Of a stretch of 64,000 nucleotides of DNA, positions 910-45,373 are shown in pieces (position 1 is the first letter of the stretch; every line of letters starts with the position of its first letter). The stretch lies in contig CALXMC010000002.1 of assembly GCA_944389385.1 (NCBI GenBank), positions 15,353-79,352 of the forward strand. Reading direction: 5' to 3'. A program made the position numbers and the translations under genes. Below the pieces are notes generated by a model. It ran no database searches and had not been told where the DNA came from. It was given only the letters and a program-made list of their open reading frames with translations. This DNA is from an uncultured Alphaproteobacteria bacterium (lineage in GTDB: Bacteria > Pseudomonadota > Alphaproteobacteria > Rs-D84).

Positions 910-3312
910 TTAAAACTGGGTATCGCTGCATGTTTCGACCGGATCCGCCCATGTTTTACAATATTTGTTACCAAACAATGGATTACCAGTTTTTGTGCAT
1001 TGTTGGGTGCGCGTGCATTTATGGCATACCAGATTTTCCCAATCAAACGTTGTTGTAATCGTTTCTTTGTAATTCCACTGATTTACCGATTTTGAACCAG
1101 TTAAATCAAGTTGACCCGCACCATCGGCACCATTCGCACTGCCAGAACCTACATTCCCTAACAATCCTACTCCACTAGTTGCTATAGCAGCACTCGCCAA
1201 CCATATTGCCCCAACAGTAGTCACAGGAACAGTAAACGCAACGACCGTTGCAGCAGCAATTGCAACCGCCGACAACATTTTTCCAAATGCGTTTTTCGGT
1301 GGTTCGGCCGATTTTGGCAAACTGGACAGTTCTGCAAAATTAACGCATGCTTCGCGTGCCATTTCACGGCGCGCATCTTTGGCATTTTCGCCATGTATTT
1401 CGGCAATGCGTTCGCCGATTGTTACATAGTCTTGCTGTAACCGTTCGGTTAATTCATCATATTTGGCGTAATAATTGTCTTTGGCGGCTTTCAGCGCGGC
1501 ATTCGCGATAATCATACGCATTTGCGTTGTCAAGGCGGGAAAACGTCCGCGGACTTGACCCGTGTTGCCGGCACGGTCGACTATGGTTTCAATACCGTCA
1601 ACCTCGCGTCCGTTCATACAGTATTGAACGTTTGGATCGGATTCAATCGCGTTAATTGCTGTGTCGATGTTACGTTGCAATACCGCCAATTCAGACGAAA
1701 TCATTTCGCGCTGACTTTCGGGGATGTTCGTTTCGCCGATATTTTTCAAGTATTCATCAACCGAGATTAACCGACCGTCTTCATTAATTTCAACACTTTC
1801 CCAATAAATCACCCCGTCAATAACCCCAGCCAATGGCTTGATTGTTCCGGGAATTTGTTCACCGGTTGCGGGGTCAATGCCCGGACTGCGCCCCAGTTCG
1901 TCATCTGTGATTTGCGAAACATCGGTGCGGCAATTTGTATAGTTGATGTCCATGCTGTCGTTTTCGCCAGAATATTCGCAAATCTTGTATTCCAACGACC
2001 GTGACCCCAGGTTTTCATCAACGGTCAGCCCCAGGCAGTTATCTGTGTCACCACATACCTTTATCATGGCTTCGTCTGCGATTTTTTGGCATTGGGTCAG
2101 CATATTATTGTCGATGTTTAAGAATATGCCTTGGGCAATGTTGTATAATTCATCATAGACCGCATCGTCACGGATGTCGGTTTCGCCATATTTTTGTTGG
2201 CACCCGACCAAGGTGTCGTACGGGCACATGCGAACGATTGTGTCTGTATCCAAACCGATACACTGTGTGTAATCGGGACCGCATCTGTCTTCGGATTGCA
2301 GACAGTCTTTGAACTGAGTCGTACAAGAATTAACGCGCATGGATGCCAAACGTGCCAATATGAAATCCCATATATCGGATTCTGGGGCGGATTCTTCTGA
2401 TATACCGCATGCGTTCAATGGTACTTTACACAGGTTTAGCATCGTTTCGGGGCGGGTCAGGCACATATCGTATGAACCGTCTGGGTCGTTGGGATCCATT
2501 GTGTCTTTACAGGCCTGTTGGAAACAAGACGATATATTACCAATACAATTTTGACGGGCGTTATCCTCGGCAATCAGTTCGGCAGATTTAACCTGGGGCG
2601 CAACCTCGCGCAGGAATGTATCCCAAACCTGGGATGCAACGTTTTGGCATTGTCTGGTGATGCCTTCACACAGCGGTTTTTTGGACAATAAAATGTCATA
2701 GGTCGATGCCTGGATTTCAATGCTTGTTGCGCTGCCTTTGATGGTGTATGTGTTGCTTAAATCGCGGTTAGTGCTGCGTGTGTTGGTGGAATCAAACGCC
2801 GCAATGGATGCGCAACCTGAAAAGTCAGAACCGCAGCCGCCTGTTTCAATCATGCAATTTTTGAATTCCACAACGCATTGTCCCAAATCATACTTGTTTG
2901 CAGACTGATATTGTTCCAATGCCGCACTGCGCAGTGCTTGCTCGGCGGTATATAATTTTTGCGCACTGGCGTTACGTTGTTGCTTTAATGAATTTTCATA
3001 CGCGGTACAATCAGAACGAATTTGTTGCGCGTACATCAAACGCAACATATCCATTTCATCGGCACATTCAGGCATTTGTTGGGCGCAAATTTCATAAGAT
3101 GCCTGATGTAATGCGTCGCCGGTTTTGTTGTCAATAGGGCTTTGGAATATGTCGGCATTGGAAAAAATGTCTTCGTCAGATACATCAACCGGCATCAGCC
3201 AAGAATTCAAATCTGTGACATTGGTCAGATCTGGCAAATCTAACGGTGGTTTGATTTTCCACATTTTTTTGATGATAAAAAATTGTCGTAAAATGATAAA
3301 AAATCCTTTCAA
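910..3312 (-). CDS. Cys-rich paralog 'B'; 5'-truncated (no signal peptide or first Cys domain), probable silent cassette
   Basis: Open frame of about 780 aa. Homology to 3361-6375 begins abruptly at 3246 (PLDLPDL vs PLKLPDL at 4003). The upstream 22 codons are not signal-like. Ends WADPVETCSDTQF. Confidence 0.8.
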   Translation of the reverse strand: MKGFFIILRQFFIIKKMWKIKPPLDLPDLTNVTDLNSWLMPVDVSDEDIFSNADIFQSPIDNKTGDALHQASYEICAQQMPECADEMDMLRLMYAQQIRSDCTAYENSLKQQRNASAQKLYTAEQALRSAALEQYQSANKYDLGQCVVEFKNCMIETGGCGSDFSGCASIAAFDSTNTRSTNRDLSNTYTIKGSATSIEIQASTYDILLSKKPLCEGITRQCQNVASQVWDTFLREVAPQVKSAELIAEDNARQNCIGNISSCFQQACKDTMDPNDPDGSYDMCLTRPETMLNLCKVPLNACGISEESAPESDIWDFILARLASMRVNSCTTQFKDCLQSEDRCGPDYTQCIGLDTDTIVRMCPYDTLVGCQQKYGETDIRDDAVYDELYNIAQGIFLNIDNNMLTQCQKIADEAMIKVCGDTDNCLGLTVDENLGSRSLEYKICEYSGENDSMDINYTNCRTDVSQITDDELGRSPGIDPATGEQIPGTIKPLAGVIDGVIYWESVEINEDGRLISVDEYLKNIGETNIPESQREMISSELAVLQRNIDTAINAIESDPNVQYCMNGREVDGIETIVDRAGNTGQVRGRFPALTTQMRMIIANAALKAAKDNYYAKYDELTERLQQDYVTIGERIAEIHGENAKDARREMAREACVNFAELSSLPKSAEPPKNAFGKMLSAVAIAAATVVAFTVPVTTVGAIWLASAAIATSGVGLLGNVGSGSANGADGAGQLDLTGSKSVNQWNYKETITTTFDWENLVCHKCTRTQQCTKTGNPLFGNKYCKTWADPVETCSDTQF

Positions 3313-3336
3313 AAATACACCGATATATGATAGAAT
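3308..3336 (+). promoter_or_regulatory. Putative sigma70 promoter of paralog A
   Basis: ttcaaa-N17-tagaat upstream of an aaggac RBS-like sequence and ATG 3361. Confidence 0.45.
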
Positions 3337-3360
3337 TATGTAAATAGGAAGGACCTTTTT

Positions 3361-6300
3361 ATGAGAAAATTTGCAATTTTTTGTGCATTGTTGATTGGTG
3401 TTGTTTATAACGCAGATGCTGCGACCGCACGAAATCCACGCGGTGGGACGGTTGCGACGACCGGGGGGGCGGCCAGTACGGGTACTCGGTCGACTACTGC
3501 GCGCAGTGCGACGACGGCGCGTGCCGCGACGGCGACACGTGGTGCTGCACCGGCGGCGGCAACAACGGCGCGTGCGGCAACTGCGGGGCGTACCACGGTC
3601 AGTCGCGGCCCGGTTGCAACAACATCTTCGTCTTCATCGGGATCTGGGGTTGCGCGCAGTGCGGTTGCGCGTGCGGGTGCCACGCAGAAGGTTATATCCA
3701 CTGGAACCAAGGTTGCCACCGCAAATGAAAATGTAGTCGTCAGTCAAGAATGTCGCCAGAAATATTACGGTTGTATGGATTCTTTCTGTATGTTGGATAA
3801 CGATAATGGCGGCCGCTGTATTTGCAGTGACCGCAGTGCTGAATTGGATTCGATTTTGGCACAAATCGAGGAACTGGATCAGCAATCTTATCAGATGGCA
3901 ACGTATGGCGTTGAACGTATCGAAATGGGTGATGCGGCCGAGACTGCAATCGCAAATGCAAATGCCGTTGCCCAGGCCATTTTGGACGAGCAAGAAAATG
4001 GACCGTTAAAATTGCCTGATTTGAATACTTGGATGACGCCTGTTGGTGCCGAAGAAGAAGATATTTTCGAAGATGTTACAAATATTTACCAAAGCCCGGT
4101 CGAAGGCAAAGAAGGGGATGCGCTGTATTCCGCTTCGCATGATATTTGCGCGGCACAAATACCCGAATGCGAGGCTGAAATGGATATGTTACAGTTGATG
4201 TATTCACAACAAATTCGTTCTGATTGCACCGCGTATGAAAATTCATTAAAGCAACAACGTAACGCCAGTGCGCAAAAATTATATACCGCCGAGCAAGCAT
4301 TGCGCAGTGCGGCATTAGAACAATATCAAAATGCAAACAAGTATGATTTGGGGCAGTGTGTTATCGAATTTAAGACCTGTATGATTGAAACTGGCGAATG
4401 TGGCGATGATTTTTCTGGATGCGCGTCCATTGCCGCGTTTGACGAAACAAATACACGTGGTGCAGGGGATCGTGCAAAAACATATAAAATTCAGGGCAGT
4501 GCCACCAGTATAGAAATTAAAGCGTCTACCTATGACATTTTGTTGTCCAAAAAACCGCTGTGCGAGAGTGTTACCAAGCAGTGTGTGGCCGCAAACGAAG
4601 CCGATGGTGGTGACCAAGTGTGGATGGCGTTCCTGCGCGAGGTTGCCCCCCAGGTTAAATCAGCCGAACTGATTGCCGAGGATAATGTTCGTCAAAATTG
4701 TATTGGTAATATATCGTCTTGTTTCCAACAGGCCTGTAAAGACACAATGGATCCCAACGACCCAGATGGTTCATACGATATGTGTTTGACAAGACCGCAA
4801 ACGATGTTTTCGCTGTGTACTGTGCCATTAAACGCGTGCGGTATATCGGCAGAAGATGGTGATGCAGACGATGTTAATGATCCAAACGGAATTTGGGACT
4901 TTGTTTTGGCGCGTTTGGCGTCTATGCGTGTGAATTCGTGCACAGACCAGGTAAAACAATGTTTGCAATCCGAAGACAGATGTGGGTCTGATTACACACA
5001 GTGTATCGGTTTGGATACAGATACAATCGTTCACATGTGCCCCGAGGAATTGTTGGTTGGTTGCCAAACATACGATGGTGGCAGCAGTGCCCAAACATAC
5101 GGTAATGATGAAGAAGATTTCTATGCCAAATTAGAGCCCATGATCCAGGGTATTTTGCTGAATATAGATAACAGTTTGTTGGAAGAATGCCAACGTGCCG
5201 CAGATGAAGCAATGATTACAGTATGTGGCAGTACTGAAAACTGCGATAATATGACTGTTGATGAGTATATCGGCGCAAATACGTTGGAGTATAAGATTTG
5301 CAGAATAATTGGTGATGACGACAGTACTGATATAGATTATAACAATTGTTATACTGATTTATCCCAAATTTCTGATACTGAATTGGGATTGCATGATTTG
5401 AACAAGGGGGCTGATGGTGTTCGGGCGGCAAACGAGAGAATAGATTTCGCCATCATTATCGAAGGCGAAATGCCGTGGGAAAATGTAATATTTGATGAAA
5501 ATGGAAAAATAGCCATAACTTCAATCGACCCAGATACACAAAACCAACGTAAAATCGAATCGGAATTGGCAACATTGCAGAATAATATAAATAATGCAAT
5601 TAACGCGATTGAATCAAACCCTGATGTGCAATTCTGTACTGTTGGGCGTATTGTTCAGGGCGTGAATGATGATGATGTCGAGGTTGGACGTACACCACAG
5701 GTGTCTCAATCGTTGCAGACGGCACAAAGATTGCAACCAAATGCGCAAGTAAATCCAAATGCACAGTTGGTTCAGACCGCGCGGTCTGTATCTGACAGAA
5801 CCGCAACCCAGGTCAGTGCATTGGATGTCGCGGTAAATAATCAGACAATTGTCGATCGTTCCGGGGCGGGCGGACGTTTCCCGGGGTTGACCATGCAAAT
5901 GCGTACTATGATTGCGACGTCGGCGATAAATCGTGCCATTGCCAATTATCGCGCAAAATATCAAGAGTTGGAAGAACGCCGTATGCAAGATTATGTGACA
6001 CTGAATGAACGTATGGCAGAAATCGATAACGAAAATACATTAGAGGCACGGCGCGAGGCTGCGCGTATGGCGTGTATCGGAACTGCGGGGGCGTCTACGT
6101 TTAGTGCTGATGCGTTTTCTGTCAAAAAAGGACGCGAAACCGCCAAAGGTGATGTCGACAGCAGTTTGGTCGGCAAAGCCAATGATGAATATGTTGGAAC
6201 CGAAGATAACAGCCGTTGGAATTATCGCGAGGTTATAACGTCTACATTCAATCCGTCGACTTTGGTGTGTAATCGTTGTACCAGAACACAAAACTGTGCA

Positions 6301-6375
6301 GACCCCAAGGGTGGACGTAAATTGTGCAAAAGATGGTCAGACCCGGTTGAAACGTGCGAAGATATACAGTTTTAA
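3361..6375 (+). CDS. Secreted Cys-rich paralog 'A' (1004 aa), function unknown
   Basis: Signal peptide MRKFAIFCALLIGVVYNADA, Thr/Ala/Arg-rich linker, CRQKYYGCMDSFC..GGRCICS motif, coiled-coil-like segments, C-terminal WSDPVETCEDIQF. Confidence 0.9.
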   Translation: MRKFAIFCALLIGVVYNADAATARNPRGGTVATTGGAASTGTRSTTARSATTARAATATRGAAPAAATTARAATAGRTTVSRGPVATTSSSSSGSGVARSAVARAGATQKVISTGTKVATANENVVVSQECRQKYYGCMDSFCMLDNDNGGRCICSDRSAELDSILAQIEELDQQSYQMATYGVERIEMGDAAETAIANANAVAQAILDEQENGPLKLPDLNTWMTPVGAEEEDIFEDVTNIYQSPVEGKEGDALYSASHDICAAQIPECEAEMDMLQLMYSQQIRSDCTAYENSLKQQRNASAQKLYTAEQALRSAALEQYQNANKYDLGQCVIEFKTCMIETGECGDDFSGCASIAAFDETNTRGAGDRAKTYKIQGSATSIEIKASTYDILLSKKPLCESVTKQCVAANEADGGDQVWMAFLREVAPQVKSAELIAEDNVRQNCIGNISSCFQQACKDTMDPNDPDGSYDMCLTRPQTMFSLCTVPLNACGISAEDGDADDVNDPNGIWDFVLARLASMRVNSCTDQVKQCLQSEDRCGSDYTQCIGLDTDTIVHMCPEELLVGCQTYDGGSSAQTYGNDEEDFYAKLEPMIQGILLNIDNSLLEECQRAADEAMITVCGSTENCDNMTVDEYIGANTLEYKICRIIGDDDSTDIDYNNCYTDLSQISDTELGLHDLNKGADGVRAANERIDFAIIIEGEMPWENVIFDENGKIAITSIDPDTQNQRKIESELATLQNNINNAINAIESNPDVQFCTVGRIVQGVNDDDVEVGRTPQVSQSLQTAQRLQPNAQVNPNAQLVQTARSVSDRTATQVSALDVAVNNQTIVDRSGAGGRFPGLTMQMRTMIATSAINRAIANYRAKYQELEERRMQDYVTLNERMAEIDNENTLEARREAARMACIGTAGASTFSADAFSVKKGRETAKGDVDSSLVGKANDEYVGTEDNSRWNYREVITSTFNPSTLVCNRCTRTQNCADPKGGRKLCKRWSDPVETCEDIQF

Positions 6376-6385
6376 TCTGTGATGA

Positions 6386-9331
6386 ATGTTGAAACGAATA
6401 CTTGTTGTTTTGATGTTTGTGTGCGGGTTTAATATTCCCGCAGATGCTGCAACACGCAGTGTTTCGACTCGTACCGTGTCGCGAAATGCTGCGCCGGTGG
6501 CGAATGCCCCGGCGACCGCGGTTGCAGCACGCAGCGCAACGACGTCAACAAATCCATCCGCCGGTGTCGCGGCGCGCGCGGCAACAACACAAAAAGTTAT
6601 CGGAACGGGTACCAAAGTTGTTGCAGCAACCAAGCCCGTCGTTTCAAACGAAGAATGCCAACAAAAATATTTCGGTTGCATGGATTCGTTGTGCATGTTG
6701 GACAGTGCCAATGGTGGGCGGTGTGTGTGCAGTAATAAAAATGCGACCTTTGATTCCATTTTGGCTGAAATCGAAGATTTTGATTTGAAAACATATCAGA
6801 TGGTAACCGTTGGTGTCGACAGTCTGGAACAGGGGTACGATATAAACGCGGTTTATGCCAAACCTGAATCTGGGGTGGATTTGTCGGCATGGAATGCTGT
6901 GTCAGATGAAGAGTTTGTGCAATCGTCGTCGGCTTTGCCGTTAAGTGACGTGACGGGTGATGCTTTGTTTTTGGCCGCACATCAAAATTGTGCTGCTGCG
7001 ATTCCTGAATGCAGTGCCAATATGCAATTTTTGCAATTGTTATACAGCCAACAAATAAATAATGATTGTGCCGCGTATGAAAATTCGTTAAAACAGCGTC
7101 GTAATGAAGCCGCACAAAAATTAGAGTCTGCCCGTTTGGGGTTGTTGGATGCGTCTTATACCGCGTTAAGTAATGCCAATAAATGGGATTTGGGACAATG
7201 CGCGGTGGAATTCAAAAATTGTATGATTTCCACGGGTGGATGTGGTGCCGATTTTTCGGGATGTGCGCCAATCGCTGCGTTTGATGCAACAAACGCCCGT
7301 TCATCTGGGGCAGGGCGGCAATATAATATCGCGGGCGAACAAACCACCGTTACAATTTCTGCATCTACGTATGATACTTTGTTATCTAAAAAGCCGTTGT
7401 GTGATAATGTTACACAAAATTGTCAATCCGTAGCGGATCAGGTTTGGGATACATTCCTGCGTGCGAATGCGCCCCAGATTAAATATGCTGAACTGATTGC
7501 CGAAGATAACGCGCGCCAGGATTGTGTCGGCGATGTGTCGTCTTGTTTCCAACGTGCGTGCCGCGATAATATTGATCCGAAAGATCCGTCGGGGTCGTAT
7601 GATGCGTGTCTGACGCGGCCCGGGACAATGTTGTCGCTTTGTACTGTGCCGTTGAATGCGTGTGGGATTTCGACTGAATCAGCCGAGGCCGCAGAAAAAT
7701 CGGATATATGGCAATTTGTTTTGGCGCGTTTGGCATCTATGCGTGTGAATTCTTGCACCACTGAATTCAAAGAATGTTTGCAATCACCGGACAGATGCGG
7801 TTCTGATTATACTCAATGTATTGGGTTGGATACTGATACAATAATGCACATGTGTCCGTATGACACCTTGGTCGGATGCCAGCAGGTTTATGGCGCGCGC
7901 AATATTCGCGGTAATGCAGTATATGACGAATTGTACAATGTTGCCCAGGGTATCTTTTTGAACATAGATAATGAAATGTTGGATTATTGCGAAGCCGCAC
8001 TGGAACAGGCGACCATTACCGCATGTGGCGATTTGGATACGTGTAAAACACTGGTTGATGATACTTTGTTGGGAACTCGTTCGTTAAATTATGAAGTGTG
8101 TGAAATTGTTTTCTTGGATGAAGGTCAAAAAATCGCGTATCAAAACTGTGTTGCAAATGCGGGATTGGTGTCGGATGAAAAATTGGGGCGCGTGGTAAAT
8201 GCAGGCGGCGAAGGACTGGGGCCTGTTACCCCGATGGGTGGTGTGATCGACGGCAATATTTATTGGGATGGCGTTAAAATTGACGACGATGGAAATATCA
8301 GCAATGTGGATGAGTATTTCAAAAATATAGGAATCACAGAACCAGAACAGGATGAATATAATTCCGTTCATCGTGAATTGGGGCAATTGCAAAATAATTT
8401 ACAGCGGATTTATGACGTAATTGAATCCGATCCCACGGTGCAGTTTTGTATGACTGGGCGCGAAGTGGATGGAATAAAGCCTTATTCGGGTACGTCTGTG
8501 CCACGTTTCCCAGAATTAACCAAGTCCACACGTCTGAAAATTGCAAATCAGGGTCTGCGCCAGGCGATGGATAATTATTATCAAAAATATGATAAGTTAC
8601 AGGCGCAACAGGCCGAAGATTATGCGACCATTACCGAACGTTTGGCGGAAAATCGTGGCGAAAACGGCAAAGATGCCCGCCGCGATGCCGCACGTCAATC
8701 CTGTGTCGATTTGGCCAAGGGTGCGGCACTGCCACGTGCGAAAACCCCCACGTCTTTGATTGGAATCATTACCACAATAGTTGTGGTTATCGCAGTTGTG
8801 ACCGTCGTTACTGTATTTACAGCCGGTGCCGGTACAATAGCGGCAGGGGCGGGTATGGCGGCCGGATTCGAGGCTGCTGCGGGTTCTGGATTATCACTTA
8901 CAACTGTTTCTACTTTGAGTGCTGTTGGAACAGGCGCGGGGTTATCCGGTGCGTCTGGGGCTGGACTTAGCGGAATTGCGGCTGCGGCTTTTAGTGCCAC
9001 TACGACTTCTTTGGCAACATCGGCAACGGTTGCAACGGTTGTTGGGGTTGTTGGTGGAACGGCCGCCGCTGCGGGTATTACGGCCGCCGCCGCGGTTGAT
9101 TACACTGGCCCCCAGGCGGTCGATGGTTCTGGGGAATTGCAGGGCAGGTATGAAAATGACCAATGGAATTATCGCGAAGTCATCGAAACGCGGTTTAATA
9201 TGGATACTTTGGTGTGTGAAAAGTGTGTAACCCAACAACAGTGTAATCAGACAAAATCGCCTTTCTTTGGTAATATGTACTGTAACAGTTGGGCAGATCC
9301 TGTTACTGAGTGCACGGATATTCAGTTTTAA
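6386..9331 (+). CDS. Secreted Cys-rich paralog 'C' (981 aa) with long Gly/Ala hydrophobic segment
   Basis: Signal peptide and the same Cys spacing as A and B; hydrophobic Gly/Ala stretch of about 110 aa (LIGIITTIVVVIAVV...AAAGITAAAAV) before the C-terminal domain ending DIQF. Confidence 0.9.
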   Translation: MLKRILVVLMFVCGFNIPADAATRSVSTRTVSRNAAPVANAPATAVAARSATTSTNPSAGVAARAATTQKVIGTGTKVVAATKPVVSNEECQQKYFGCMDSLCMLDSANGGRCVCSNKNATFDSILAEIEDFDLKTYQMVTVGVDSLEQGYDINAVYAKPESGVDLSAWNAVSDEEFVQSSSALPLSDVTGDALFLAAHQNCAAAIPECSANMQFLQLLYSQQINNDCAAYENSLKQRRNEAAQKLESARLGLLDASYTALSNANKWDLGQCAVEFKNCMISTGGCGADFSGCAPIAAFDATNARSSGAGRQYNIAGEQTTVTISASTYDTLLSKKPLCDNVTQNCQSVADQVWDTFLRANAPQIKYAELIAEDNARQDCVGDVSSCFQRACRDNIDPKDPSGSYDACLTRPGTMLSLCTVPLNACGISTESAEAAEKSDIWQFVLARLASMRVNSCTTEFKECLQSPDRCGSDYTQCIGLDTDTIMHMCPYDTLVGCQQVYGARNIRGNAVYDELYNVAQGIFLNIDNEMLDYCEAALEQATITACGDLDTCKTLVDDTLLGTRSLNYEVCEIVFLDEGQKIAYQNCVANAGLVSDEKLGRVVNAGGEGLGPVTPMGGVIDGNIYWDGVKIDDDGNISNVDEYFKNIGITEPEQDEYNSVHRELGQLQNNLQRIYDVIESDPTVQFCMTGREVDGIKPYSGTSVPRFPELTKSTRLKIANQGLRQAMDNYYQKYDKLQAQQAEDYATITERLAENRGENGKDARRDAARQSCVDLAKGAALPRAKTPTSLIGIITTIVVVIAVVTVVTVFTAGAGTIAAGAGMAAGFEAAAGSGLSLTTVSTLSAVGTGAGLSGASGAGLSGIAAAAFSATTTSLATSATVATVVGVVGGTAAAAGITAAAAVDYTGPQAVDGSGELQGRYENDQWNYREVIETRFNMDTLVCEKCVTQQQCNQTKSPFFGNMYCNSWADPVTECTDIQF

Positions 9332-9333
9332 TA

Positions 9334-9570
9334 GTTACTCGTAATTCGTGATAGATCACCCTTCGCCAAGGCTTCGGGTGATAAACCACCCCGGCACGCT
9401 TACCACCCACGAAAATTGCATTTTCGCGGGGCCCGGTATCGTGCCACCCCTCCGCTAGATGAGGAACTTTGTTCCGCGACGGGATGGGGGCGGTAGCCAT
9501 AGCCTGACTCAGAGGAGAACTTGTTCCGCGACGGTACAGTCTAACTTCCCCTCCGCTAGATGAGGAACTT
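9334..9570. repeat. Composite palindromic repeat cluster 2
   Basis: gttactcgtaa, cacccttcgccaaggcttcgggtga and accaccccggcac...cccctccgctagatgaggaact modules shared with the other clusters. Confidence 0.85.
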
Positions 9571-9690: not shown

Positions 9691-11799
9691 CTATTCACAT
9701 GCACCGTGCGATTTCGCAACCGGATAGTTTTCCAGACATACACTGCCCGAAACTGTGCATGCGCCCGGAACCAATGTTATGGCATTGCTGTCCGCGGGTT
9801 TATAGTTAATTTGCGCCGATGCACACTGGTTCAAGTCAGTTATCGAATTGCACGAACGACGCCATGAATCACAATCTGAGGCAGAACCAGTCGGACTGAC
9901 CGTTTCCGGCAAATTCAGATTCCATTTTACATAGAAATCTTTCAGTGATTCAATTGCGTATGATTTGTTATATCCGACCTGGGCCAGGTTATCGCCAACA
10001 TGACAACTGATGTTGCTGCGTTCGACAAATGCAGTTATCGCGGTTGCCAACCCACCTGCGCCTGCACCAACGCCCGCGCCAATGCCGATTGCTTTACCCA
10101 TGTTGGATTCTTCGCCGTTTCGCAACAAGTCTGTGACGTCGGCGTTGAATATCCGTGACAAGATATCGTTTGCCTGTTGACATGTCATATATTGGGGTTC
10201 GTCACAATGCAGTAATGCCAACGGTACGTCCGTGGTTGCGTATGTTTCGGCTATTTTGGTTTGTGATACTAATTTGACCGTTGCGTGTTGTGGGTCGATG
10301 CCATACTTGTTGATGAATTCGTTTTGGCAACTTGTTGCATCATCGCTGGAACACGCGAAACTGACGTTATTCAAGTAATTTTCACATTCATCAACTGTGT
10401 CGAATTGTGTGCATGCAGTGGCGTATTGACTGAAACATTCGCCCGCATCCATGGAACCACAGTTCAATGACGTTGCAAATTTGAATATCGTGCTGTTTAT
10501 GTTGATTATGTCAAAACTGATGCCTTCCCCAAAATCAAACAGTTTTGTAATCTGTTCGCATTGGTCGATGGACACCATTTCAGTTATTGCAGATATTTTC
10601 AAAGATGGATCGTCAATGAATTCATTCACAGAACCAATCAAACCATCGTTCTTTAACAAATCGGTCAACATCTCACGATGTTTATCACGTGTGCAATCAA
10701 ACGCGCGGTCGCCATGACCCGCAATTGCACCAACGCCCGCGCCAACAACTGCGCCGCCACCGATACCCACAACCGCCGCAGTATTTGTTTGATTCATTAA
10801 CGAAAATCCGAATAAATCGCGATTGCATGTGAATGTATCGCCCGCGCGACGCCATACTTCGGCGGGTTGGTCGTTACCGACCGCACCGAATAACCAACTG
10901 TTTTTAATTTGTTGATTTTTGTTGTATGCCGCAACACGTATCCAACATTCAGCGGTTTCTGGATCCCAACGGGCGTAGTGTCCGCGTGCACCATCAACGC
11001 CCGAGTTGCCATAGTTTAATGCAGCACCCTGGGGGTTGCGTTTCACCAATATTCCGCCGTTTTGATTGTTGTATGCACCTGTGCTGATGTTGTATTCAGA
11101 TGTAACACTGCCTGCATTCGATACCGCATCAAATGATGGACCGTACGTATTTACATCCAAAAGTTTGCATGTGTTTTCAGCCTGGTACGGGGTTAATCCA
11201 GTTTTGCGTAATACAAAGTTATAGTATGTTGGTTGAACCTTGCGCGAGTTAAAGTCAATCCATACATCAGACGGCATACGATATACGTTGGAACAATCCT
11301 GGCGTACTTCGGCTATGCAGCGTTCAACCTGGGGTTGACATAAATTCATGCCGTTTATGATGGAATTGCGCAATTCCGTGTTAAACATGTCGTTAATGCC
11401 GCCGGGCAGGGCGCCACTGTTGATACATAACAACAAATCATCCATACAGTTATCAACCGTGTATGTTGAATTTTCAACGCCACCATCGGGGCATTCGGGT
11501 TCTGGATCCGGGTCTGGGTCTGGATCAGGATCTGGATCTGGGTCCGGATCTGGATCCGGTTGATCCGGATTGTCCGGCGTGACAGATGGTAAATTTGGTG
11601 AAGTATTACCGACCGTAAAATTTGGTAATGTCGGCATTGTTGGCATGCGTTGAGACGAACCGGCCGTTGTGGCCGCAGCACGCCCAGATGGTGCAGTATT
11701 GGCGCCACTGCGTGCGGTAACCGCGTCCGCCGAGCCGATTATTGCACATACAACAAATCCCGTTAATGGTGTCAAAAATAACCTGTGCCAAGATTTCAT
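9691..11799 (-). CDS. Secreted Cys-rich protein (702 aa) with Pro-Asp repeat linker and two glycine-zipper segments
   Basis: Signal-like N-terminus, (PD)n tract, AAVVGIGGGAVVGAGVGAIAG and AIGIGAGVGAGAGGLATAI segments, many Cys. Confidence 0.85.
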   Translation of the reverse strand: MKSWHRLFLTPLTGFVVCAIIGSADAVTARSGANTAPSGRAAATTAGSSQRMPTMPTLPNFTVGNTSPNLPSVTPDNPDQPDPDPDPDPDPDPDPDPDPEPECPDGGVENSTYTVDNCMDDLLLCINSGALPGGINDMFNTELRNSIINGMNLCQPQVERCIAEVRQDCSNVYRMPSDVWIDFNSRKVQPTYYNFVLRKTGLTPYQAENTCKLLDVNTYGPSFDAVSNAGSVTSEYNISTGAYNNQNGGILVKRNPQGAALNYGNSGVDGARGHYARWDPETAECWIRVAAYNKNQQIKNSWLFGAVGNDQPAEVWRRAGDTFTCNRDLFGFSLMNQTNTAAVVGIGGGAVVGAGVGAIAGHGDRAFDCTRDKHREMLTDLLKNDGLIGSVNEFIDDPSLKISAITEMVSIDQCEQITKLFDFGEGISFDIININSTIFKFATSLNCGSMDAGECFSQYATACTQFDTVDECENYLNNVSFACSSDDATSCQNEFINKYGIDPQHATVKLVSQTKIAETYATTDVPLALLHCDEPQYMTCQQANDILSRIFNADVTDLLRNGEESNMGKAIGIGAGVGAGAGGLATAITAFVERSNISCHVGDNLAQVGYNKSYAIESLKDFYVKWNLNLPETVSPTGSASDCDSWRRSCNSITDLNQCASAQINYKPADSNAITLVPGACTVSGSVCLENYPVAKSHGACE

Positions 11800-12895: not shown

Positions 12896-13125
12896 TTCGT
12901 TACTGGTTACTCGTGCCACCCCCCGTCGCGCGGGGCGCGCCACCCCCCGCCCCCAGAATCCACCCACGCAAACTTTGTTTGCGCGGGGCCCGGTGTGGGA
13001 CGGTGGGGATTAAACCACCCCGGGCTTGACCACCCACGCGACACGTCGCGCGGGGCCCGGTGCCGCCCACCCCTCCGCTAGATGAGGAACTTAGACCGCG
13101 ACGGAATGAGGTGAGGTCCCGTCAC
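12885..13125. repeat. Composite palindromic repeat cluster 3
   Basis: gttactcgtaattcgttactggttactcg, accccccgtcgc and accaccccgggc...cccctccgctagatgaggaact modules with nested mini-hairpins. Confidence 0.85.
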
Positions 13126-38433: not shown

Positions 38434-38459
38434 AAAATCCCCCGTCTGGGGGATTTTTT
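38433..38459. terminator. Intrinsic terminator
   Basis: aaaaaatcccc-cgtct-ggggatttttt hairpin. Confidence 0.75.
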
Positions 38460-38536
38460 ATCGTAATAAAATTCCTAGACATTTTTATAAATAAATGTGA
38501 TATTATATGTGCGTACAATAACAAAAGGGGTTGTGA

Positions 38537-38917: not shown

Positions 38918-38944
38918 AAAAGTCCGCCAATCGGCGGATTTTTT

Positions 38945-39440
38945 AGTTACTTGTTATTCGTGATAGACCACCCCGCCCGGATTCTACCCACGCAAACTAT
39001 GTTTGCGCGGGACCCGGGGCGGTGGGCGTTCGTGCGACCGATGCGACGTGTAGCCCTTTCCACTCTTGGGCGGTGGGGATTAGACCACCCCGGCACGCTG
39101 GCGCGTGCCACCCCTCCGCTAGATGAGGAACTTTGTTCTGCGACGGTACTGGGGGCAGCCCCATCCGTTGTAAAGGGGGACTTAGGCCGTGGTGGGAAGG
39201 TACCAAGTTCCCCTCCATTGGAGGGGTGGCGGCTTGCCGCCGGGGTGGTTAGAGACTGCGGAATTATCCACTTAGTCCCTTTGTCATCGCGAGCGGAGCG
39301 TGGCGATCCAGTAAATAAAAAAGCACTGCGGGCGGATGCCCGCAGGCATATTGCACTGGATTGCCACCGTCGTACGACAACGGTTCCAACGTTTCGCGCT
39401 CCTTCGCAATGACAGCGGGGAAATCACGAGTAACCTGTAA
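38945..39440. repeat. Composite palindromic repeat cluster 4
   Basis: Same modules as clusters 1 and 6, including an inverted copy of the 348-487 element at 39283-39413. Confidence 0.9.
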
Positions 39441-39468
39441 CAAAAAACGGGGCGATGCCCCGTGCTTA

Positions 39469-40581
39469 TTAACGATTGGTTAATTGTAATTCTATACGAC
39501 GATTTTGTTGCAAACTGGTCGCGTCGGTACCCAAAGTAACAGGGTGTAAATCGCCAAAACCACTGGGAACCAGGCGACGACGCGATACACCATTGGCCGC
39601 CAATTCGGTCGCCACAGCGTTCGCACGCAACAATGACAGTTCCATATTATTCGAATAATCGCGCGTGCCACGCATAACTTGTTTGCGATCTGTATGTCCG
39701 TCAACGCGGATAATCCAATCGATGTCTGTCGGGATTTTGTCTTCCAAATCGCGGATTACCTTTGCAATCAAGCGCAGTTGATTTTTACCCTCGGGCGACA
39801 GGGTATAAGAACCACTGCTGAACAAAATATCGCTGGAAATTATGAAACGGTCGCCTTGGGCCTCGATAAATTTTTCTTCGCCAAGTGCGTCTTTTATTCC
39901 GCGGTAAAATTCAGATTGGTATTGTGCAACGTCATTTAATTCTGCGACTTTATCGGCCAAAGCCTGGTTCAATCGATTCGACATTTCCAGATATTCTATG
40001 TCTTTTTGGTTTGATTCTTCTTGGGCGGCATCCAGTGCGGCCTGTAACTTATTTAATTGTTCGGCCAATTCTGCACGTTGTGCTGACATTTCTTGCTGTA
40101 ATGCGCGGCGTTCTTGTTCCAGTTCAGCGGTGCGTTGTTTGTCCAAGTTGGCCTGATTCAATTGGGTGGTTAATTCAGCGACCTGGGCCGACAAATCCGC
40201 GCCCTGGGTTTGTAATTCTGCGACTTTGGCCTCGTAATCTGCAATCAGTTCATCCATTGTCATATCAACCTGTTGCAGTTCGGTGGTTAATTGGTTGTTA
40301 TTTGCAGATAAATTTTCCAATTCGGCACGCGCCAAAATCAGTAAACGTTTGGCTTCTTCTTCGTCGGCAGTCATTTGCACAATGCGTTCAGATTGTTCTG
40401 CGTTGATTTTTTTCAAATCAGCCACCGTTTTCGCACCTGTGTCACGGTTAAATACACTGGTTGTTGTCCATAAAAACACAAACACAATCAACAAAAATAT
40501 AAGTATAATCACCAGGTTCGAAAACAAATCAACGAACGCAGGCCAAGTGTTTGCACGTTCACGAAATCTGAAATTCATCAT
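39469..40581 (-). CDS. MotB/OmpA-like peptidoglycan-binding protein with long coiled coil
   Basis: TM segment WPAFVDLFSNLVIILIF (conserved Asp), coiled coil, ILFSSGS, VDGHTD, NMELSLLRA, GFGD, NRRIEL. Confidence 0.88.
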   Translation of the reverse strand: MMNFRFRERANTWPAFVDLFSNLVIILIFLLIVFVFLWTTTSVFNRDTGAKTVADLKKINAEQSERIVQMTADEEEAKRLLILARAELENLSANNNQLTTELQQVDMTMDELIADYEAKVAELQTQGADLSAQVAELTTQLNQANLDKQRTAELEQERRALQQEMSAQRAELAEQLNKLQAALDAAQEESNQKDIEYLEMSNRLNQALADKVAELNDVAQYQSEFYRGIKDALGEEKFIEAQGDRFIISSDILFSSGSYTLSPEGKNQLRLIAKVIRDLEDKIPTDIDWIIRVDGHTDRKQVMRGTRDYSNNMELSLLRANAVATELAANGVSRRRLVPSGFGDLHPVTLGTDATSLQQNRRIELQLTNR

Positions 40582-40605
40582 TTTTCTCTCTCTTTTTTTG
40601 GGACC

Positions 40606-41355
40606 TTATTGTGTAACTGTGTTTTTTATTTGGCGCAGATTGTCATTTATCTGGGGCAGAACAGTTGCGACTGTATCCGTGGTTGCGACACTTGTGTGTG
40701 CAGACAGATAATCTTCAACCTCGCGGAAAATGGCATTCTGAGCCAATTGAACCTGTAACCCCAGGAATCCGACAGCCAAACTGCCCGCCAATCCCATCAG
40801 TGAACTGGTAAATGCGGTCGCCATGCCCGACAAAGGGCGGGTCAGGCCGGCCTGCATATTTTGTAAAACCGATTCGTCCGAAAAATCCAAAGCACCGATT
40901 AAGTCTGCAAATCCGCCGACGGTTAAAATCAGTCCCCAAAATGTTCCCAATAATCCCAAAAATATCAGCGTGTTTGTGATATACCGCACCGATTCGCGTG
41001 AATCTTCGAAACGATTCAAAATCATTTCCAACATGCCGTTCAATGTTGTCCCAGATATGCGGACGGGGCGTGCACGCAATATCAACGCCACGGGCCGCAA
41101 CAAACGCGGGGGCAGGGCAACCCGTTTGCGGCCTGAAAAATACGCACGTGCCCATTTGTATTCGGGTAATAATTTGAATATTTCAACAAAGCACAGTCCA
41201 ATTCCGAAAACAGTTGTACCAATGATGATGCCGTTTAATAACACGTTTGCCGCCGCTATGCGTAAAAATGGCGCATAGAACAAAATCAACCCAACCAACA
41301 ATAATGCTGTGAACAAAGCCATGCGGTTAAGTGCGTTATGGAATTGGCGTGTCAT
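40606..41355 (-). CDS. MotA/TolQ/ExbB proton-channel family protein
   Basis: LIFLGLLGTFWGL, GMATAFTSSLMGL. Confidence 0.85.
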   Translation of the reverse strand: MTRQFHNALNRMALFTALLLVGLILFYAPFLRIAAANVLLNGIIIGTTVFGIGLCFVEIFKLLPEYKWARAYFSGRKRVALPPRLLRPVALILRARPVRISGTTLNGMLEMILNRFEDSRESVRYITNTLIFLGLLGTFWGLILTVGGFADLIGALDFSDESVLQNMQAGLTRPLSGMATAFTSSLMGLAGSLAVGFLGLQVQLAQNAIFREVEDYLSAHTSVATTDTVATVLPQINDNLRQIKNTVTQ

Positions 41356-41495
41356 GAATCTCTCTTCTTTTGGTACCTTTACAATGATGGTAGTAAATTT
41401 TTATCGTTCAAGTCAAGCGGTTACATCACCGTATCTTTGGTTATTAACACAACATCCGCATGGTATGGTACAGAAAAAGTTTGTGAATATGGATG

Positions 41496-42059
41496 TTAAT
41501 CCAAAAATGTCGTGCATGGGTCAGACTGCAATTTCTGCAAGTCTGCTTGGTCGCTTTCGGAATTGTCATAGAACAGATAAAACACGACTTTTCTGTCCGT
41601 TTTTTTATCTTCCTGGGAACCTGTTTTTACTTTGGCACATTGTGCGCCGACCCCACGACTTATAATTTTTACGTTTTCTGGCCGATTTTTCCAATTGGTT
41701 TGGATATAATCAGCCGCTGACAGTGCGCGTTTTGCTGATAATTGTTCGTTTGTACAAATCTTTTCTTTTGCGCACAAATCAGAAGTTTGGATAATCTTGT
41801 TGTTGTCTGTATGCGCAATCAAATACAATGTTGCAGGATAATCTGTAAACGATGCCGCATTTTCTTCAAATTTTTCAATAACATCATCCAAAACTTTACT
41901 ATTTTCTATCTTATACACCCCATCACCAAACAAAGACTCATTATACAGCCTCAATAACTCTGATGATTCCGTTTCTTCGGCCTGTGGGGCGTCTTCCTTT
42001 TCCTGTGTACTTGGTTGATCTGGATAACATCTGCCATTACCGGTATTCAAGGACTGCAA
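41496..42059 (-). CDS. 5'-truncated OmpA-like C-terminal cassette, paralogous to the 3' end of 43484-45373
   Basis: No signal peptide or RBS. About 77 codons near the start are almost identical to the 43484-45373 product, then a divergent OmpA-like tail (HTD..NEQLSAKRA..RGVG..DRKVVF). Confidence 0.8.
   Translation of the reverse strand: MQSLNTGNGRCYPDQPSTQEKEDAPQAEETESSELLRLYNESLFGDGVYKIENSKVLDDVIEKFEENAASFTDYPATLYLIAHTDNNKIIQTSDLCAKEKICTNEQLSAKRALSAADYIQTNWKNRPENVKIISRGVGAQCAKVKTGSQEDKKTDRKVVFYLFYDNSESDQADLQKLQSDPCTTFLD
41806..42037 (-). repeat. Left arm of 232-bp inverted repeat (partner 44763-44994)
   Basis: Manual alignment gives 232 bp with 5 mismatches. Confidence 0.95.
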
Positions 42060-42188
42060 ACGGCATAAAGCCCAAAAGAAAAAGAACCAGAATTCCGCCT
42101 TTTTTTATCTTTGAAAAATGCCGAAAAAAAAGGTTGGATTTTTTTGGCAAAATATGGGATAATGTCAAGGATCAGAAAGAATGAGAGA

Positions 42189-43487
42189 ATGAAGTTATTT
42201 CGCAGTATTTTTATTGCCGTCATTGTGATAGTTCCTGGTTTGGCGCGGGGTGAAGTTGCTAAGTTTCCAAAAGAGTATACTATGGACGCTGCCAATTCGC
42301 CAGTTTTTTATAATTCTATGATCCAACAACTTTGTGTGGGTGGCGACGGTACCATGGTGTTTATGGGATTACAGGCCATAAGGATAAATTGTACCAATGG
42401 TTGGAAAAATAACGCCGAACCAACCCAAGCAGAATTTGACAAAGCATATGATGCAGCATTGTCAACGGCCGGGATTGGTAACAGTGCCGCTGAGAAAAGT
42501 ACGAAAAACACCGATACAGTTGTATCCAGAAATACAACATCACGTGGTGGTTCTGCATCCGTTGCTACGTCGACAGTGCCGGCGTCGGGAAATCGAACGG
42601 ATTATACAGTTGTCGGCAATATTGTTCGTTACACTGGTATGATTTCTGATTGGGATTTTGTAAATGCTGATTTAAACACGGGTGGTCGCAAGGCCTTTGA
42701 CAATCATTTGACGGAAAAATTCTGTATGACCACCGCGGGTAACAACGTTACTGTTGACCAGGCAGGCATAGTAATTACCTGCAATACGATAAAACCAGAA
42801 AGTATGCGCCCCAACAGTTTATTGGAAGAATATTATTACGCCCTGTGTCGTGGCAAATGTGCTGATGGTGGGGGCACATACAGCAGCGGCAGTGGAACTG
42901 GTGACGGATGCGTTTGTAAAGGAATCGTCAAGCCCGAACCCATCCCAGAATATGATGCAGAAAAATTAGAGAGATTAAATGCCCAGGTCGCACGTCAAGC
43001 GGATAAAAGTATAAGCAAAGATGTGAAACAATTAGAACAGGAATCCGATAAGGAACTGCAAAAAGATGTAAAGGCTGACTCGCGCCAGTTGGACAAGGAT
43101 ATTCAAACGGAATTCAACGATATTGACGAAAGTACAGAAAAACTGACGGACGAATTAAATCGCCAAAAGTTCGAGTCCGATATGGAACAGGCTGCAATCG
43201 ATGATGCGTTAATTTCCGTCGATGAAATAAATTCAGAATCCGATAAGGAACTGCAAAAACAGCTAGAATGTGAATCTAAAAATCCACCAAAGGCGGCCAA
43301 GAAAAATTTCCTTGGTATTTGGGTCTGTGTTGATACCCAGGAAACTGTTGATGCACGCAAGGCTGCGCGGGCAACAAATAAAATCTTAAACGCATTCTGG
43401 AACGAAATGGAAGACTTGGAACGTGCATTTAATAAACGCGTGCGCCAGTTGCGACGTGATGCCAAACGCGATGGGGATGACAAATGA
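42189..43487 (+). CDS. Secreted hypothetical protein with Cys motifs and acidic coiled coil
   Basis: Signal-like MKLFRSIFIAVIVIVPGLARG at ATG 42189; putative -10 gataat near 42157; stop overlaps the start of the next gene (ATGA). Confidence 0.8.
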   Translation: MKLFRSIFIAVIVIVPGLARGEVAKFPKEYTMDAANSPVFYNSMIQQLCVGGDGTMVFMGLQAIRINCTNGWKNNAEPTQAEFDKAYDAALSTAGIGNSAAEKSTKNTDTVVSRNTTSRGGSASVATSTVPASGNRTDYTVVGNIVRYTGMISDWDFVNADLNTGGRKAFDNHLTEKFCMTTAGNNVTVDQAGIVITCNTIKPESMRPNSLLEEYYYALCRGKCADGGGTYSSGSGTGDGCVCKGIVKPEPIPEYDAEKLERLNAQVARQADKSISKDVKQLEQESDKELQKDVKADSRQLDKDIQTEFNDIDESTEKLTDELNRQKFESDMEQAAIDDALISVDEINSESDKELQKQLECESKNPPKAAKKNFLGIWVCVDTQETVDARKAARATNKILNAFWNEMEDLERAFNKRVRQLRRDAKRDGDDK

Positions 43488-45373
43488 TGAAAAGACCATT
43501 GGTTGCCGCTTTGATGTTGTTGTATCCGTTGGTTGCGTTTGGTGCCGCCAAGACTGATGGTGTTGATACATCCAGTTTGGAAAACGCACAAACGTTCGAT
43601 GATTTGAAAGCCGCTTACCAGGATACTTCAAATGAAGTGATGAAAAAATATGATAAGCAGATTGATCGAGAGGAAATTATTGCAGCCCAGGGTCAAGTCT
43701 TGGAGAATATAGAAGCGTTAGACGAAGTGCTTGCAGAAGACGCGTTAAAAGCAGAAAAAGAAGCAAAAAAGAACCAAGACTCAGAGCCCGATGCGACATT
43801 ATCAGAAGAAGATTCATTGGCGCAGATAGAAGAATTACAGGCGAATGCGGACGCTATGCGTGAAAAAGAACAATCGTTTGGTAATCGTATGGTTGGTGGT
43901 GCAGCCATGGGCACGATGGGGATTGGGGGTCAGATGATAGGTTCTGCGTTGGCGGAACAAAGCGCTGATTCAGATGCAGAAATGGATATGGCTGCATACC
44001 TTGCGACATTCAAATGCGATTATGGTGCCGGGAAAAATATCGCGGGCGGTACGCTGAATGTGGAATTGCCTGGTGCGAATATATTATTGCCGATATATAC
44101 AGAATACGTAACATTGGCGGCGGATTTGAAGACTCGGAAAGAAGCGTTGGGGATGGCGCCAGGGATAGAATCGAACGAGATATTGGATGCGGCGACATCT
44201 GGTTTATATGACAATGTGTCGACTGGGGTGACGGGTGGTGCGTATGCGTCGATTGCGCGCGCGCTGATGAATCCCGAGGGTGCGGATGCAGCGGCCTGGG
44301 CGGCACAAAAGGCGGAAACGTCTGAACAATTAAAGGCAGGTGCGATAACGGCTGGGGTTGGTGCCTTGGTTGGGATAAGTGGCAATGTATTGCTGAACGA
44401 GATAGGTCCGAACAAGGTTGAAGAACGCAGTGATGAAATAATGTCTGAATACGACAAGAAACGCCGCATCATCCGCGAAGAGTTGGAAGAAGTAGAAGAA
44501 GATTCATTGGAACAACAAATCACTGAAGCCCCCGACGTCGAACCGTTTAAGATAAGTGATGCGGAGTTGGCATGTCAATCTGTGGGAACGTGGGATGCAG
44601 AGTTAAATACCTGTCATTGCAATAATGGAAATCCATGGGATTTTGATAATTTGGTTTGCATGGGTGATGAAGTGATAAATGGAGATAGTTGTTTTGATTC
44701 TGGTGGTGAATGGGATGGTGATAAGTGTGTGTGTCCAGATAAGTATAGGTTGAATCCCAGTGATGGCAGATGTTATCCAGATCAACCAAGTACACAGGAA
44801 AAGGAAGACGCCCCACAGGCCGAAGAAACGGAATCACCAGAGTTATTGAGGCTGTATAATGAGTCTTTGTTTGGTGATGGGGTGTATAAGATAGAAAATA
44901 GTAAAGTTTTGGATGATGTTATTGAAGATTTTGAAGAAAATGCGGCATCGTTTACAGATTATCCTGCAACGTTGTATTTGATTGCACATACAGATCGTGA
45001 TGATGTTCGGAAAAATTCTTCTTTGTGTCGAAATGATAAGATTTGTGACAATGATGCGCTTTCCGAGGCGCGGGCGAATTCGGTAAAGAATTATTTGAAA
45101 GAACATTGGCCAAGTAATCTGACCGATGTAAAAATAAAAACGCAGGCCGCTGGGGAAAAATGTGCAGATCAGAGTGCAATTAGCGACGACAAACAGAAAT
45201 TAGACCGAAAAGTCGTGTTTTATCTGTTCTTTGATGATGTTAAAGCTGATCAGGAGTATTACGAGCAGTTACAGGACAATCCCTGTTATAAGTTAAACAG
45301 AAAATCAAGTACTGTAAGTGAAGCGGTTAGAGAGACAAATGTTTTGAAAAAATTGTTTAAAAACATGGCTTAA
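43484..45373 (+). CDS. Secreted protein with glycine zippers, Cys-rich mini-repeats and C-terminal OmpA-like domain
   Basis: Signal peptide, GGAAMGTMGIGG, AGVGALVGISG, CxxxGxW..CxC repeats, HTD...NDALSEARANSVKNYL...DRKVVF. Confidence 0.85.
   Translation: MMKRPLVAALMLLYPLVAFGAAKTDGVDTSSLENAQTFDDLKAAYQDTSNEVMKKYDKQIDREEIIAAQGQVLENIEALDEVLAEDALKAEKEAKKNQDSEPDATLSEEDSLAQIEELQANADAMREKEQSFGNRMVGGAAMGTMGIGGQMIGSALAEQSADSDAEMDMAAYLATFKCDYGAGKNIAGGTLNVELPGANILLPIYTEYVTLAADLKTRKEALGMAPGIESNEILDAATSGLYDNVSTGVTGGAYASIARALMNPEGADAAAWAAQKAETSEQLKAGAITAGVGALVGISGNVLLNEIGPNKVEERSDEIMSEYDKKRRIIREELEEVEEDSLEQQITEAPDVEPFKISDAELACQSVGTWDAELNTCHCNNGNPWDFDNLVCMGDEVINGDSCFDSGGEWDGDKCVCPDKYRLNPSDGRCYPDQPSTQEKEDAPQAEETESPELLRLYNESLFGDGVYKIENSKVLDDVIEDFEENAASFTDYPATLYLIAHTDRDDVRKNSSLCRNDKICDNDALSEARANSVKNYLKEHWPSNLTDVKIKTQAAGEKCADQSAISDDKQKLDRKVVFYLFFDDVKADQEYYEQLQDNPCYKLNRKSSTVSEAVRETNVLKKLFKNMA
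44763..44994 (+). repeat. Right arm of 232-bp inverted repeat (partner 41806-42037)
   Basis: atggcagatgttatccagatcaacc...attgcacatacaga matches the reverse complement of 41806-42037. Confidence 0.95.

Follow-up and report, generated by a model that had tools for sequence, protein, structure and literature searches.

At the sap locus of Campylobacter fetus, a promoter-bearing segment lies between oppositely oriented sapA homologs and is inverted in a RecA-dependent manner. In the silent-cassette gene conversion systems, such as Anaplasma msp2, Neisseria pilE/pilS and Borrelia vlsE, the exchange is non-reciprocal and draws on many cassettes. A third kind is described in two reports as gene-altering, shufflon-like inversions or "partial intergenic invertons"; adjacent recombinase genes are over-represented at such loci, which are thought to rely on short specific repeats (PMC9881135; 10.1101/2023.03.11.532203). 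Here we analyze two loci for secreted proteins found in a 64,000-nucleotide (nt) stretch of DNA, hereafter the window, from an uncultured alphaproteobacterium. The window corresponds to C2:15353-79352 of the genome designated G000, and coordinates are window positions unless a contig is named. We consider it fairly probable that each locus is a gene-altering inversion locus that is flipped by general homologous recombination, with conversion tracts accompanying the flips.

Layout of the two loci

Both loci have a 5' segment, which presumably bears the promoter, flanked by two inverted homologous 3' bodies, one of full length and the other 5'-truncated yet open. The sequence-only reading of this stretch had proposed the same layout, a full gene plus an inverted truncated copy, at two loci ~40 kb apart. 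As far as the components go this was accurate, but the geometries differ, with a 458-amino-acid (aa) gene lying inside the locus 2 segment. Locus 1 comprises the following features.

910..3264, minus strand: body P0001, presumed silent, a 5'-truncated paralog with ~784 open codons from 'MWKIKPPLDLPDL'
2480..2556, minus strand: left arm of conversion patch 2, a 77-nt exact inverted match to 4690-4766
2935..3006, minus strand: left arm of conversion patch 1, a 72-nt exact inverted match to 4228-4299
3265..3360, plus strand: intergenic putative promoter and 5' untranslated region of P0002, AT-rich, with AGGAAGGA ahead of ATG 3361
3361..6375, plus strand: full-length gene P0002 (the expressed copy in this reading), 1004 aa, with signal peptide, Ser/Thr/Ala/Arg-rich stretch and Cys-rich body
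4228..4299, plus strand: right arm of conversion patch 1 within the P0002 gene, exact partner of 2935-3006
4690..4766, plus strand: right arm of conversion patch 2 within the P0002 gene, exact partner of 2480-2556
6386..9331, plus strand: tandem paralog P0003 of full length (981 aa), which served as control for codon use

The open reading frame (ORF) at 910-3312 on the minus strand is divergent from, and directly upstream of, the full-length gene at 3361-6375 on the plus strand, and it lacks the first ~213 residues of P0002, that is, the signal peptide and N-terminal domain. Homology between P0001 and P0002 begins at ~3250, which is 110 nt away from the P0002 ATG and equivalent to P0002 residue ~213. 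The listed TTG start of this ORF falls within the AT-rich putative promoter region of P0002, and the first Met of P0001, at 3264, has by inspection neither a Shine-Dalgarno-like sequence upstream nor a signal peptide. The region 3265..3360, which probably holds the promoter, is 89% conserved in the sister species G071 and would travel with the invertible segment. No Pfam or NCBIfam family matched P0002 above threshold, and the ESM Atlas gave no usable match for P0002 or for the conserved N-terminal core (N-core) of the locus 2 protein P0005.

The DNA identity between P0001 and P0002 is a mosaic, in which a background of 50-80% is interrupted by two patches at 92-100%; in the other two paralog pairs of the locus, the longest exact run is at most 23 nt. 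Within the patch windows, 26-28 of 28-30 identical residues are encoded by the identical codon, as opposed to ~50% elsewhere and in the P0003 controls over the same columns. Because codon identity is so far above that of the P0003 control, the patches are recombination tracts and not the product of protein constraint. Of the 243 covered columns in which 15 full-length relatives never vary, P0001 retains 237, and it keeps 33/33 of the invariant Cys.

At the cassette boundary of locus 1 (3232-3261) there is a quasi-palindrome, TGGCAAATC-N12-GATTTTCCA, in which the 'WKI' codons are the reverse complement of the 'DLP' codons. In G071 (L057 ~11590-11625), the same quasi-palindrome has perfect arms and a 12-nt spacer that is inverted with respect to that of the window.

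The features of locus 2 are as follows.

41496..42059, minus strand: cassette P0004, presumed silent, consisting of the box plus var4 (the 3' part of the OmpA-like domain), without the 5' gene part
41806..42050, minus strand: left arm of the inverted repeat (the 'box'), partner 44750-44994
42051..44749, plus strand: invertible segment of 2.7 kb, comprising U (the upstream region), the gene of 458 aa and the first 1266 nt of the P0005 gene
42111..43487, plus strand: 458-aa gene P0127 inside the invertible segment, its stop overlapped by the P0005 gene
43484..45373, plus strand: full-length gene P0005 (the expressed copy in this reading), 629 aa, with signal peptide, conserved N-core, Cys-rich middle, box and var5
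44750..44994, plus strand: right arm of the inverted repeat, inside the P0005 gene, partner 41806-42050

The cassette P0004 matches residues 423-601 of the 629-aa P0005. The inverted repeat is identical at 237 of 245 positions (96.7%), with exact runs of 89, 74 and 41 nt, and its flanks drop to ~50% identity in the variable tail (var4 vs var5) and to 27% on the other side. Upstream of the box, an extension of the truncated frame is broken by a stop in the window's genome. A consensus promoter and terminator scan of locus 2 did no better than on shuffled sequence, with 8 promoter sites against 9.1 expected.

The exchanged module of locus 2 was characterized mostly by structure. No family matched P0005 above threshold; PF00691 scored 24.5 and 21.8 bits for the module, below the gathering cut-off of 27.2, and precomputed annotation lists PF00691 for most P0005 relatives. 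A model of the cassette, made from alignment A3, has a mean predicted local distance difference test score (pLDDT) of 72, with residues 40-180 mostly at 75-92. Foldseek returned 119 PDB matches for this model at E <= 0.001, headed by the TssL, OmpA, OprF, MotB and Pal domains, with target-normalised template modelling (TM) scores of ~0.5-0.7 for single-domain chains. In sequence searches of the PDB, the single module had no match and the profile had one weak match, to TssL. By its modelled fold, then, the swapped module is an OmpA-like peptidoglycan-binding domain of the periplasmic type. The box spans the first strand and the helices of this domain, and the variable tail is the remainder, from the 'LYLIAHTD' strand on.

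It might be argued that each truncated copy is a gene in its own right or a simple pseudogene, and that the repeats reflect nothing but protein constraint. Gene callers do list these copies as ORFs starting 'MWxIK' or 'MQSLN', and some of the cassette records have longer N-terminal extensions. We find this scarcely credible. At locus 1, codon identity in the patches is ~90% against ~50% for equally conserved residues in the control paralog, and the truncated start has the deficiencies noted above; at locus 2, the box with its high DNA identity sits next to sequence at ~50%, the upstream extension is interrupted in the window's genome, and contigs show the inverted arrangement.

If the two loci do invert by homologous recombination, the moving element would be a segment with the sole promoter and the 5' coding part, placed between two inverted, homologous and diverged 3' bodies. 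The locus 1 segment would carry the signal peptide and N-terminal domain, and that of locus 2 the upstream gene and the conserved N-core. Recombination between the inverted homologous stretches, most likely of the RecA type since this genome has RecA and RecO (recA is present in G000, and recO lies inside the window), would flip the segment. After the flip, the head would be joined in frame to the other body, and the formerly expressed body would be left headless and presumably silent. Accompanying conversion tracts would keep short stretches near identical and would yield mosaic bodies.

Orientations and forms in other samples and genomes

Contigs of four runs (X1, X6, X7 and X11, where X1 is the source sample) were aligned over 39400-46400. 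In X6, locus 2 has the same flanks (~98.5% identical to the window), but the 2.7-kb middle segment between them is inverted. One X6 contig leads from the left flank through var4 and 297 unmatched nt into the N-core on the opposite strand (joint 41828/44518), and a second passes from the right flank through var5 directly into the box, followed by U and the gene of 458 aa, also on the opposite strand (joint 44972/41829). The latter joint falls at equivalent positions in the two repeat arms. The orientation in X11 is that of the window. With regard to the orientation polymorphism raised in the sequence-only reading, locus 2 occurs in both orientations when samples of the same species are compared. 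The Cys-rich middle is not covered in X6; X7 breaks where X6 does yet covers this middle, and both forms may be present there, possibly as two strains.

The alternative bodies of locus 2 are also found in sequence records. Among the 23 closest relatives of P0005, 11 have the Cys-rich middle, box and var5, and 12 have a different, shorter middle with box and var4; the var4 of these 12 'form B' records is 97-100% identical in protein sequence to the window's presumed silent cassette. Eight records fall in the cassette length range, seven of them in cassette context and one (P0257) a fragment of 131 aa. All seven have the same truncated start and, where they are longer, the same upstream translation. 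P0250, from the window's own cluster, and P0251 are box plus var4 cassettes, P0252 has half of each box type plus var4, and P0253-P0256 are box plus var5 cassettes. The longest contig is 18607 for both P0021, where var4 is in the expressed position, and P0254, a var5 cassette, and it is 6338 for both P0028 and P0253. These equal longest contigs, which are the sole basis for pairing the records, place the reciprocal state on one contig.

In a tree of the N-core (24 rows, 12 per form), each of the two deep clades, which have full support, contains both forms. By parsimony, three form changes are needed, of which at least two are forced by well-supported branches; this distribution could reflect repeated events or recombination between strains. 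Where expressed alleles are invariant (133 columns), the var5 cassettes differ at 2-3 columns, as compared with 21-27 of the 66 variable columns, and their substitutions are mostly residues already present in expressed alleles. Judged by this pattern, they look like working alleles rather than decaying fragments.

Records related to locus 1 show a comparable picture. Three proteins of 772-780 aa (P0137, P0168 and P0173) open with 'MWQIKGPL(Q/D)LPDL', which is the same truncated start as in the window copy. P0168, a headless protein of the sister species with the start 'MWQIKGPLQLPDL', shares 99% identity with the body encoded by the full-length G071 gene (978 aa). P0173 has the cassette start, then ~75 residues of P0001 type that include a 7-residue insertion, and then a body of G071 type, with the switch in the conserved stretch equivalent to patch 1. 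Since the switch sits where a patch 1 crossover would fall, this chimera matches the left-behind body that a flip predicts. P0137 is of G071 type up to ~residue 479 and of P0002 type thereafter. In G071 itself, a ~33-nt remnant of the cassette start is retained upstream of the promoter.

Another way to read these data is that the loci have undergone rare evolutionary rearrangements and do not form a switch. In that case, fast-evolving paralogs would have been subject to occasional inversion, partial duplication or allele replacement, and the locus 2 forms would be old haplotypes spread between strains. Several of our observations count against inversion as a recurrent process, and many of them suit this account. 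The two orientations differ between samples and were not seen mixed in one clone, and the X1 contigs are uninformative, ending inside the repeat. X6 carries a 297-nt middle where the window has a stretch of 453 nt; no copy of the X6 middle is present in the window's genome, in which the best tblastn match (43% identity) covers the box only. Middle type is fully linked to tail type (12/12 and 12/12), and the product expected from a one-step flip, the Cys-rich middle with box and var4, is absent among the best 120 matches. Given the different middle and the missing one-step product, inversion plus replacement separates the observed locus 2 states; the one-step product may be uncommon or disfavored by selection, or else the two forms represent haplotypes of greater age. 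No chimera of P0002 head and P0001 body was found for the window's own species among the best 120 matches. Cassette records were found solely as called ORFs of at least 102 aa, so that broken cassettes would escape, and this biases the constraint test.

The distribution within the genus adds to this side. The nearest species reference, G071, has a cassette at neither locus; at locus 1 it has the tandem pair alone, with no inverted repeat of at least 60 nt in 14.5 kb. In 60 genomes of the genus, members of the P0002 family stand as same-strand tandems, with no head-to-head pair among the matches listed, and the complete relative G062 (958,618 bp) has no cassette pair without a recombinase. On these three grounds, the 'lineage-wide' variation system envisaged by the sequence-only reading is not supported. 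Moreover, only 2-3 state changes are seen among 24 protein clusters, and an inverted 3'-end copy on contig C1 (see below), which lacks a variable part, indicates that such duplications arise without evident use.

Nevertheless, we regard the rare-rearrangement account as rather unlikely. The presumed silent copies keep long open frames with the constraint pattern of expressed alleles, and the window's var4 is nearly or fully identical to var4 expressed elsewhere. Sharp-edged near-identical stretches within bodies of ~50% identity point to recent exchange between copies. The truncated start is conserved across species, and the same design is found in two unrelated gene families 40 kb apart. We therefore continue to favor inversion by homologous recombination, presumably frequent enough to serve as a variation mechanism.

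Recombinases and the mode of recombination

The window was said in the sequence-only reading to hold no invertase or integrase ORF and no short site common to the two loci, and both statements are borne out. None of the 41 window ORFs scanned against Pfam matched a recombinase family, and matches to Phage_integrase, Resolvase and two IS110/Piv families all lie outside C2:15353-79352. When the repeats of locus 1 were compared with those of locus 2 and of the C1 locus, no exact word of at least 10 nt was common to them. The search of the genome that the same reading called for found the window free of recombinases but not the genome, in which three tyrosine and five serine matches above the cut-off lie elsewhere. 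Among these are two orphan small serine recombinase genes of resolvase/invertase type, at C2:107020-107445 (231 aa, with rpsB beside it) and at C5:111680-112105 (198 aa, near tRNA-editing and glycosyltransferase genes); no mobile-element context is visible in their 3.4-kb loci, and the surroundings are housekeeping genes.

The crossover points vary between records. At locus 1 they lie at the cassette boundary, in patch 1 and near residue 479, and at locus 2 in mid-box and at the box end; such variation fits homologous rather than site-specific recombination. Because the window has no recombinase, the repeats have no common word, the crossovers vary and RecA and RecO are present, homologous recombination appears to be the best-supported mechanism, and it would apply at both loci. 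Leaving aside its lineage-wide scope, the earlier proposal of variation by homologous recombination on long coding repeats holds up in this respect: movement of the promoter and 5' part between bodies is supported by X6, the reciprocal records, the varied crossovers and the patches.

Could a site-specific invertase nonetheless act in trans? One of the orphan serine recombinases (C2 ~107 kb, C5 ~112 kb) or a tyrosine recombinase might do so in the manner of a master invertase, with its sites inside the repeats. The eight recombinase matches allow for this, and the two small genes among housekeeping genes, which could act in trans, are a further point against a purely homologous process. Invertible regions with no nearby recombinase have been observed, according to one report (Milman et al. 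2023, PMC9881135), and the quasi-palindrome at the locus 1 cassette boundary has the look of a site. However, the repeats of the loci lack a common word of at least 10 nt, crossovers fall at different points from record to record, and the repeats are far longer than recombinase sites. We rejected the quasi-palindrome as a recombinase site, since it is loosely matched at 11 other places in the genome and has no partner at locus 2. On balance, a trans-acting invertase seems quite improbable to us, and homologous recombination, probably RecA-dependent, is retained as the preferred mechanism.

Distribution, setting and relation to known systems

DNA and protein self-comparisons of G000 yielded the two window loci plus one on C1; the other close inverted repeats are full genes or intergenic elements. 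On C1 (C1:34969-36812, L041:3970-5813), there is an inverted duplicate of the last 66 codons and ~12 nt of the gene for P0126, a Cys-rich secreted protein of 459 aa. The copy lies 166 nt upstream of the P0126 start, beside dnaA, and is 100% identical over 222 nt with sharp edges. It was rejected as a variation cassette because it holds the last 66 codons only and no variable part, so that a flip would leave the protein unchanged. Two other candidates were also rejected. The 359-nt, 100% identical inverted repeat on C4 consists of two complete copies of a small helix-turn-helix-like gene, both including the upstream region (C4:45721-46079 and 50644-51002; L042), which bracket a 4.6-kb block with metK, DHFR-like and NUDIX/ASCH genes, and the repeats at 85.8-92.2 kb of C2 are full-length convergent paralogs. 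Elsewhere on C4 (C4:21173-24780) there are about ten tandem units of ~240-320 nt, one of them inverted (24466-24780; 71-75% identity), with no ORF of at least 120 aa across them; a 402-aa tyrosine integrase (C4:27520-28728) and a Fic-domain gene lie close by.

In G062, there are five close inverted repeats of at least 100 nt, made up of one weak 134-nt match, three arm pairs from two full-length paralog pairs, and one enzyme cassette. The last (G062:C1:841513-845622) has an 853-aa enzyme gene, an inverted 305-aa C-terminal paralog (291-nt repeat, 82%) and an adjacent 199-aa serine recombinase gene. From its sequence ends, the 853-aa enzyme resembles a cytoplasmic, restriction-modification-like protein. 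With regard to further pairs of a full gene and a truncated copy, as anticipated in the sequence-only reading, G000 offers only the C1 repeat, without a variable part, and G062 a pair that is linked to a recombinase. In many genomes of the genus, contigs end inside members of the P0002 family (e.g. G060:C2:8-1282, G070:C20:1-1245, G121:C3:24-1358), where repeats or orientation mixtures may have defeated the assemblers.

The genome G000 has 993,017 bp in 11 contigs, is 97% complete and has ~44% G+C. It probably belongs to the Candidatus Enterousia group; the assignment is no firmer than this because it is based on P0115, a distant relative at 48% identity that carries this name. A published description places the group in the order Rs-D84 of the Alphaproteobacteria, with genomes of ~0.75-1.0 Mb. 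The sequence-bearing runs are chicken-gut and faeces metagenomes, and 19 of the 24 listed runs, which come from 7 studies, hold at least half of the sampled words. A scan of JGI metagenomes with P0005 found nothing closer than one 38% relative. Around the two loci, the window has housekeeping genes (grpE, tpiA, pgk, clpP, clpX, rplI and recO) and numerous genes for large secreted proteins that match no known family.

Composite G+C-rich intergenic repeat elements are found at 295-913, 9329-9490, 12916-13113, 38968-39441, 45425-45782, 57500-57870 and 58111-58383. They belong to families D4-D18, include several inverted pairs, and follow many genes in both orientations. Run depth over 45484-45717 is 4 to >20 times that of neighbouring bins, and because of this raised depth the elements are taken to be multi-copy. 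At 46484-46723, upstream of ribosomal protein genes ending in rplI, there are two tandem 112-nt copies (96% identity, spaced 128 nt), each with an arm of a 42-nt inverted repeat.

A broader proposal can be put forward tentatively, as one possibility: genome-reduced gut alphaproteobacteria may vary secreted proteins without an invertase, by flipping a module of promoter plus head, with conversion keeping the identity needed for the next flip, and with the peptidoglycan-binding core as the part exchanged at locus 2. If so, a locus 2 flip would vary the cell wall bound by the protein, rather than an exposed antigen. If the flips recur, this would be inversion-based protein variation that needs no dedicated recombinase, in genomes below 1 Mb, where silent kilobases cost. 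Inverton finders designed for short repeats would probably miss such loci, because the repeats here are long, imperfect coding homologies. There is also a practical consequence for metagenome-assembled genomes of this group, in which contigs are interrupted within these families and gene callers report headless genes as ordinary proteins.

The two loci would work most like the Campylobacter fetus sap inversion. As in that system, one segment with a putative promoter lies between inverted homologs, recombination takes place in conserved coding stretches, there is no local invertase, and one homolog at a time would be expressed. The differences are that the invertible segment here also carries the 5' coding part, giving chimeric proteins, that each locus has two bodies only, and that the proteins are not of that S-layer family. 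With the silent-cassette conversion systems, of which one example is alphaproteobacterial, the loci have in common a truncated reservoir that is presumably silent, mosaic expressed genes and, probably, the use of homologous recombination; unlike them, each locus has a single cassette, and locus 2 shows a reciprocal exchange, an inversion. The short conversion patches of locus 1 are compatible with tracts that accompany crossovers.

The sequence-only reading knew of no such system for this kind of alphaproteobacterium. Recombinational surface variation is well known in other Alphaproteobacteria, e.g. Anaplasma msp2, and in that wider sense the claim goes too far. For this uncultured group it stands, in that no literature description of such variation was found for the Enterousia group; the predicted-locus lists of Milman 2023 and Chanin might include the taxon.

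The enzyme cassette of G062 comes from the same genus and likewise pairs a full gene with an inverted partial paralog, and it differs from the window loci in having its own recombinase adjacent and in encoding what seems to be a cytoplasmic enzyme. In terms of the described classes, the loci belong to the broad gene-altering inversion kind, as described by Milman et al. 2023, but without the usual adjacent recombinase. They share with that kind an expressed gene and an inverted partial copy, joined through repeats within the coding sequence, the alternative protein variants that result, and detection by comparison of related genomes. They depart from it in that no recombinase or short specific site is nearby, and that homologous stretches of 70-245 nt with varying crossovers take the place of such a site.

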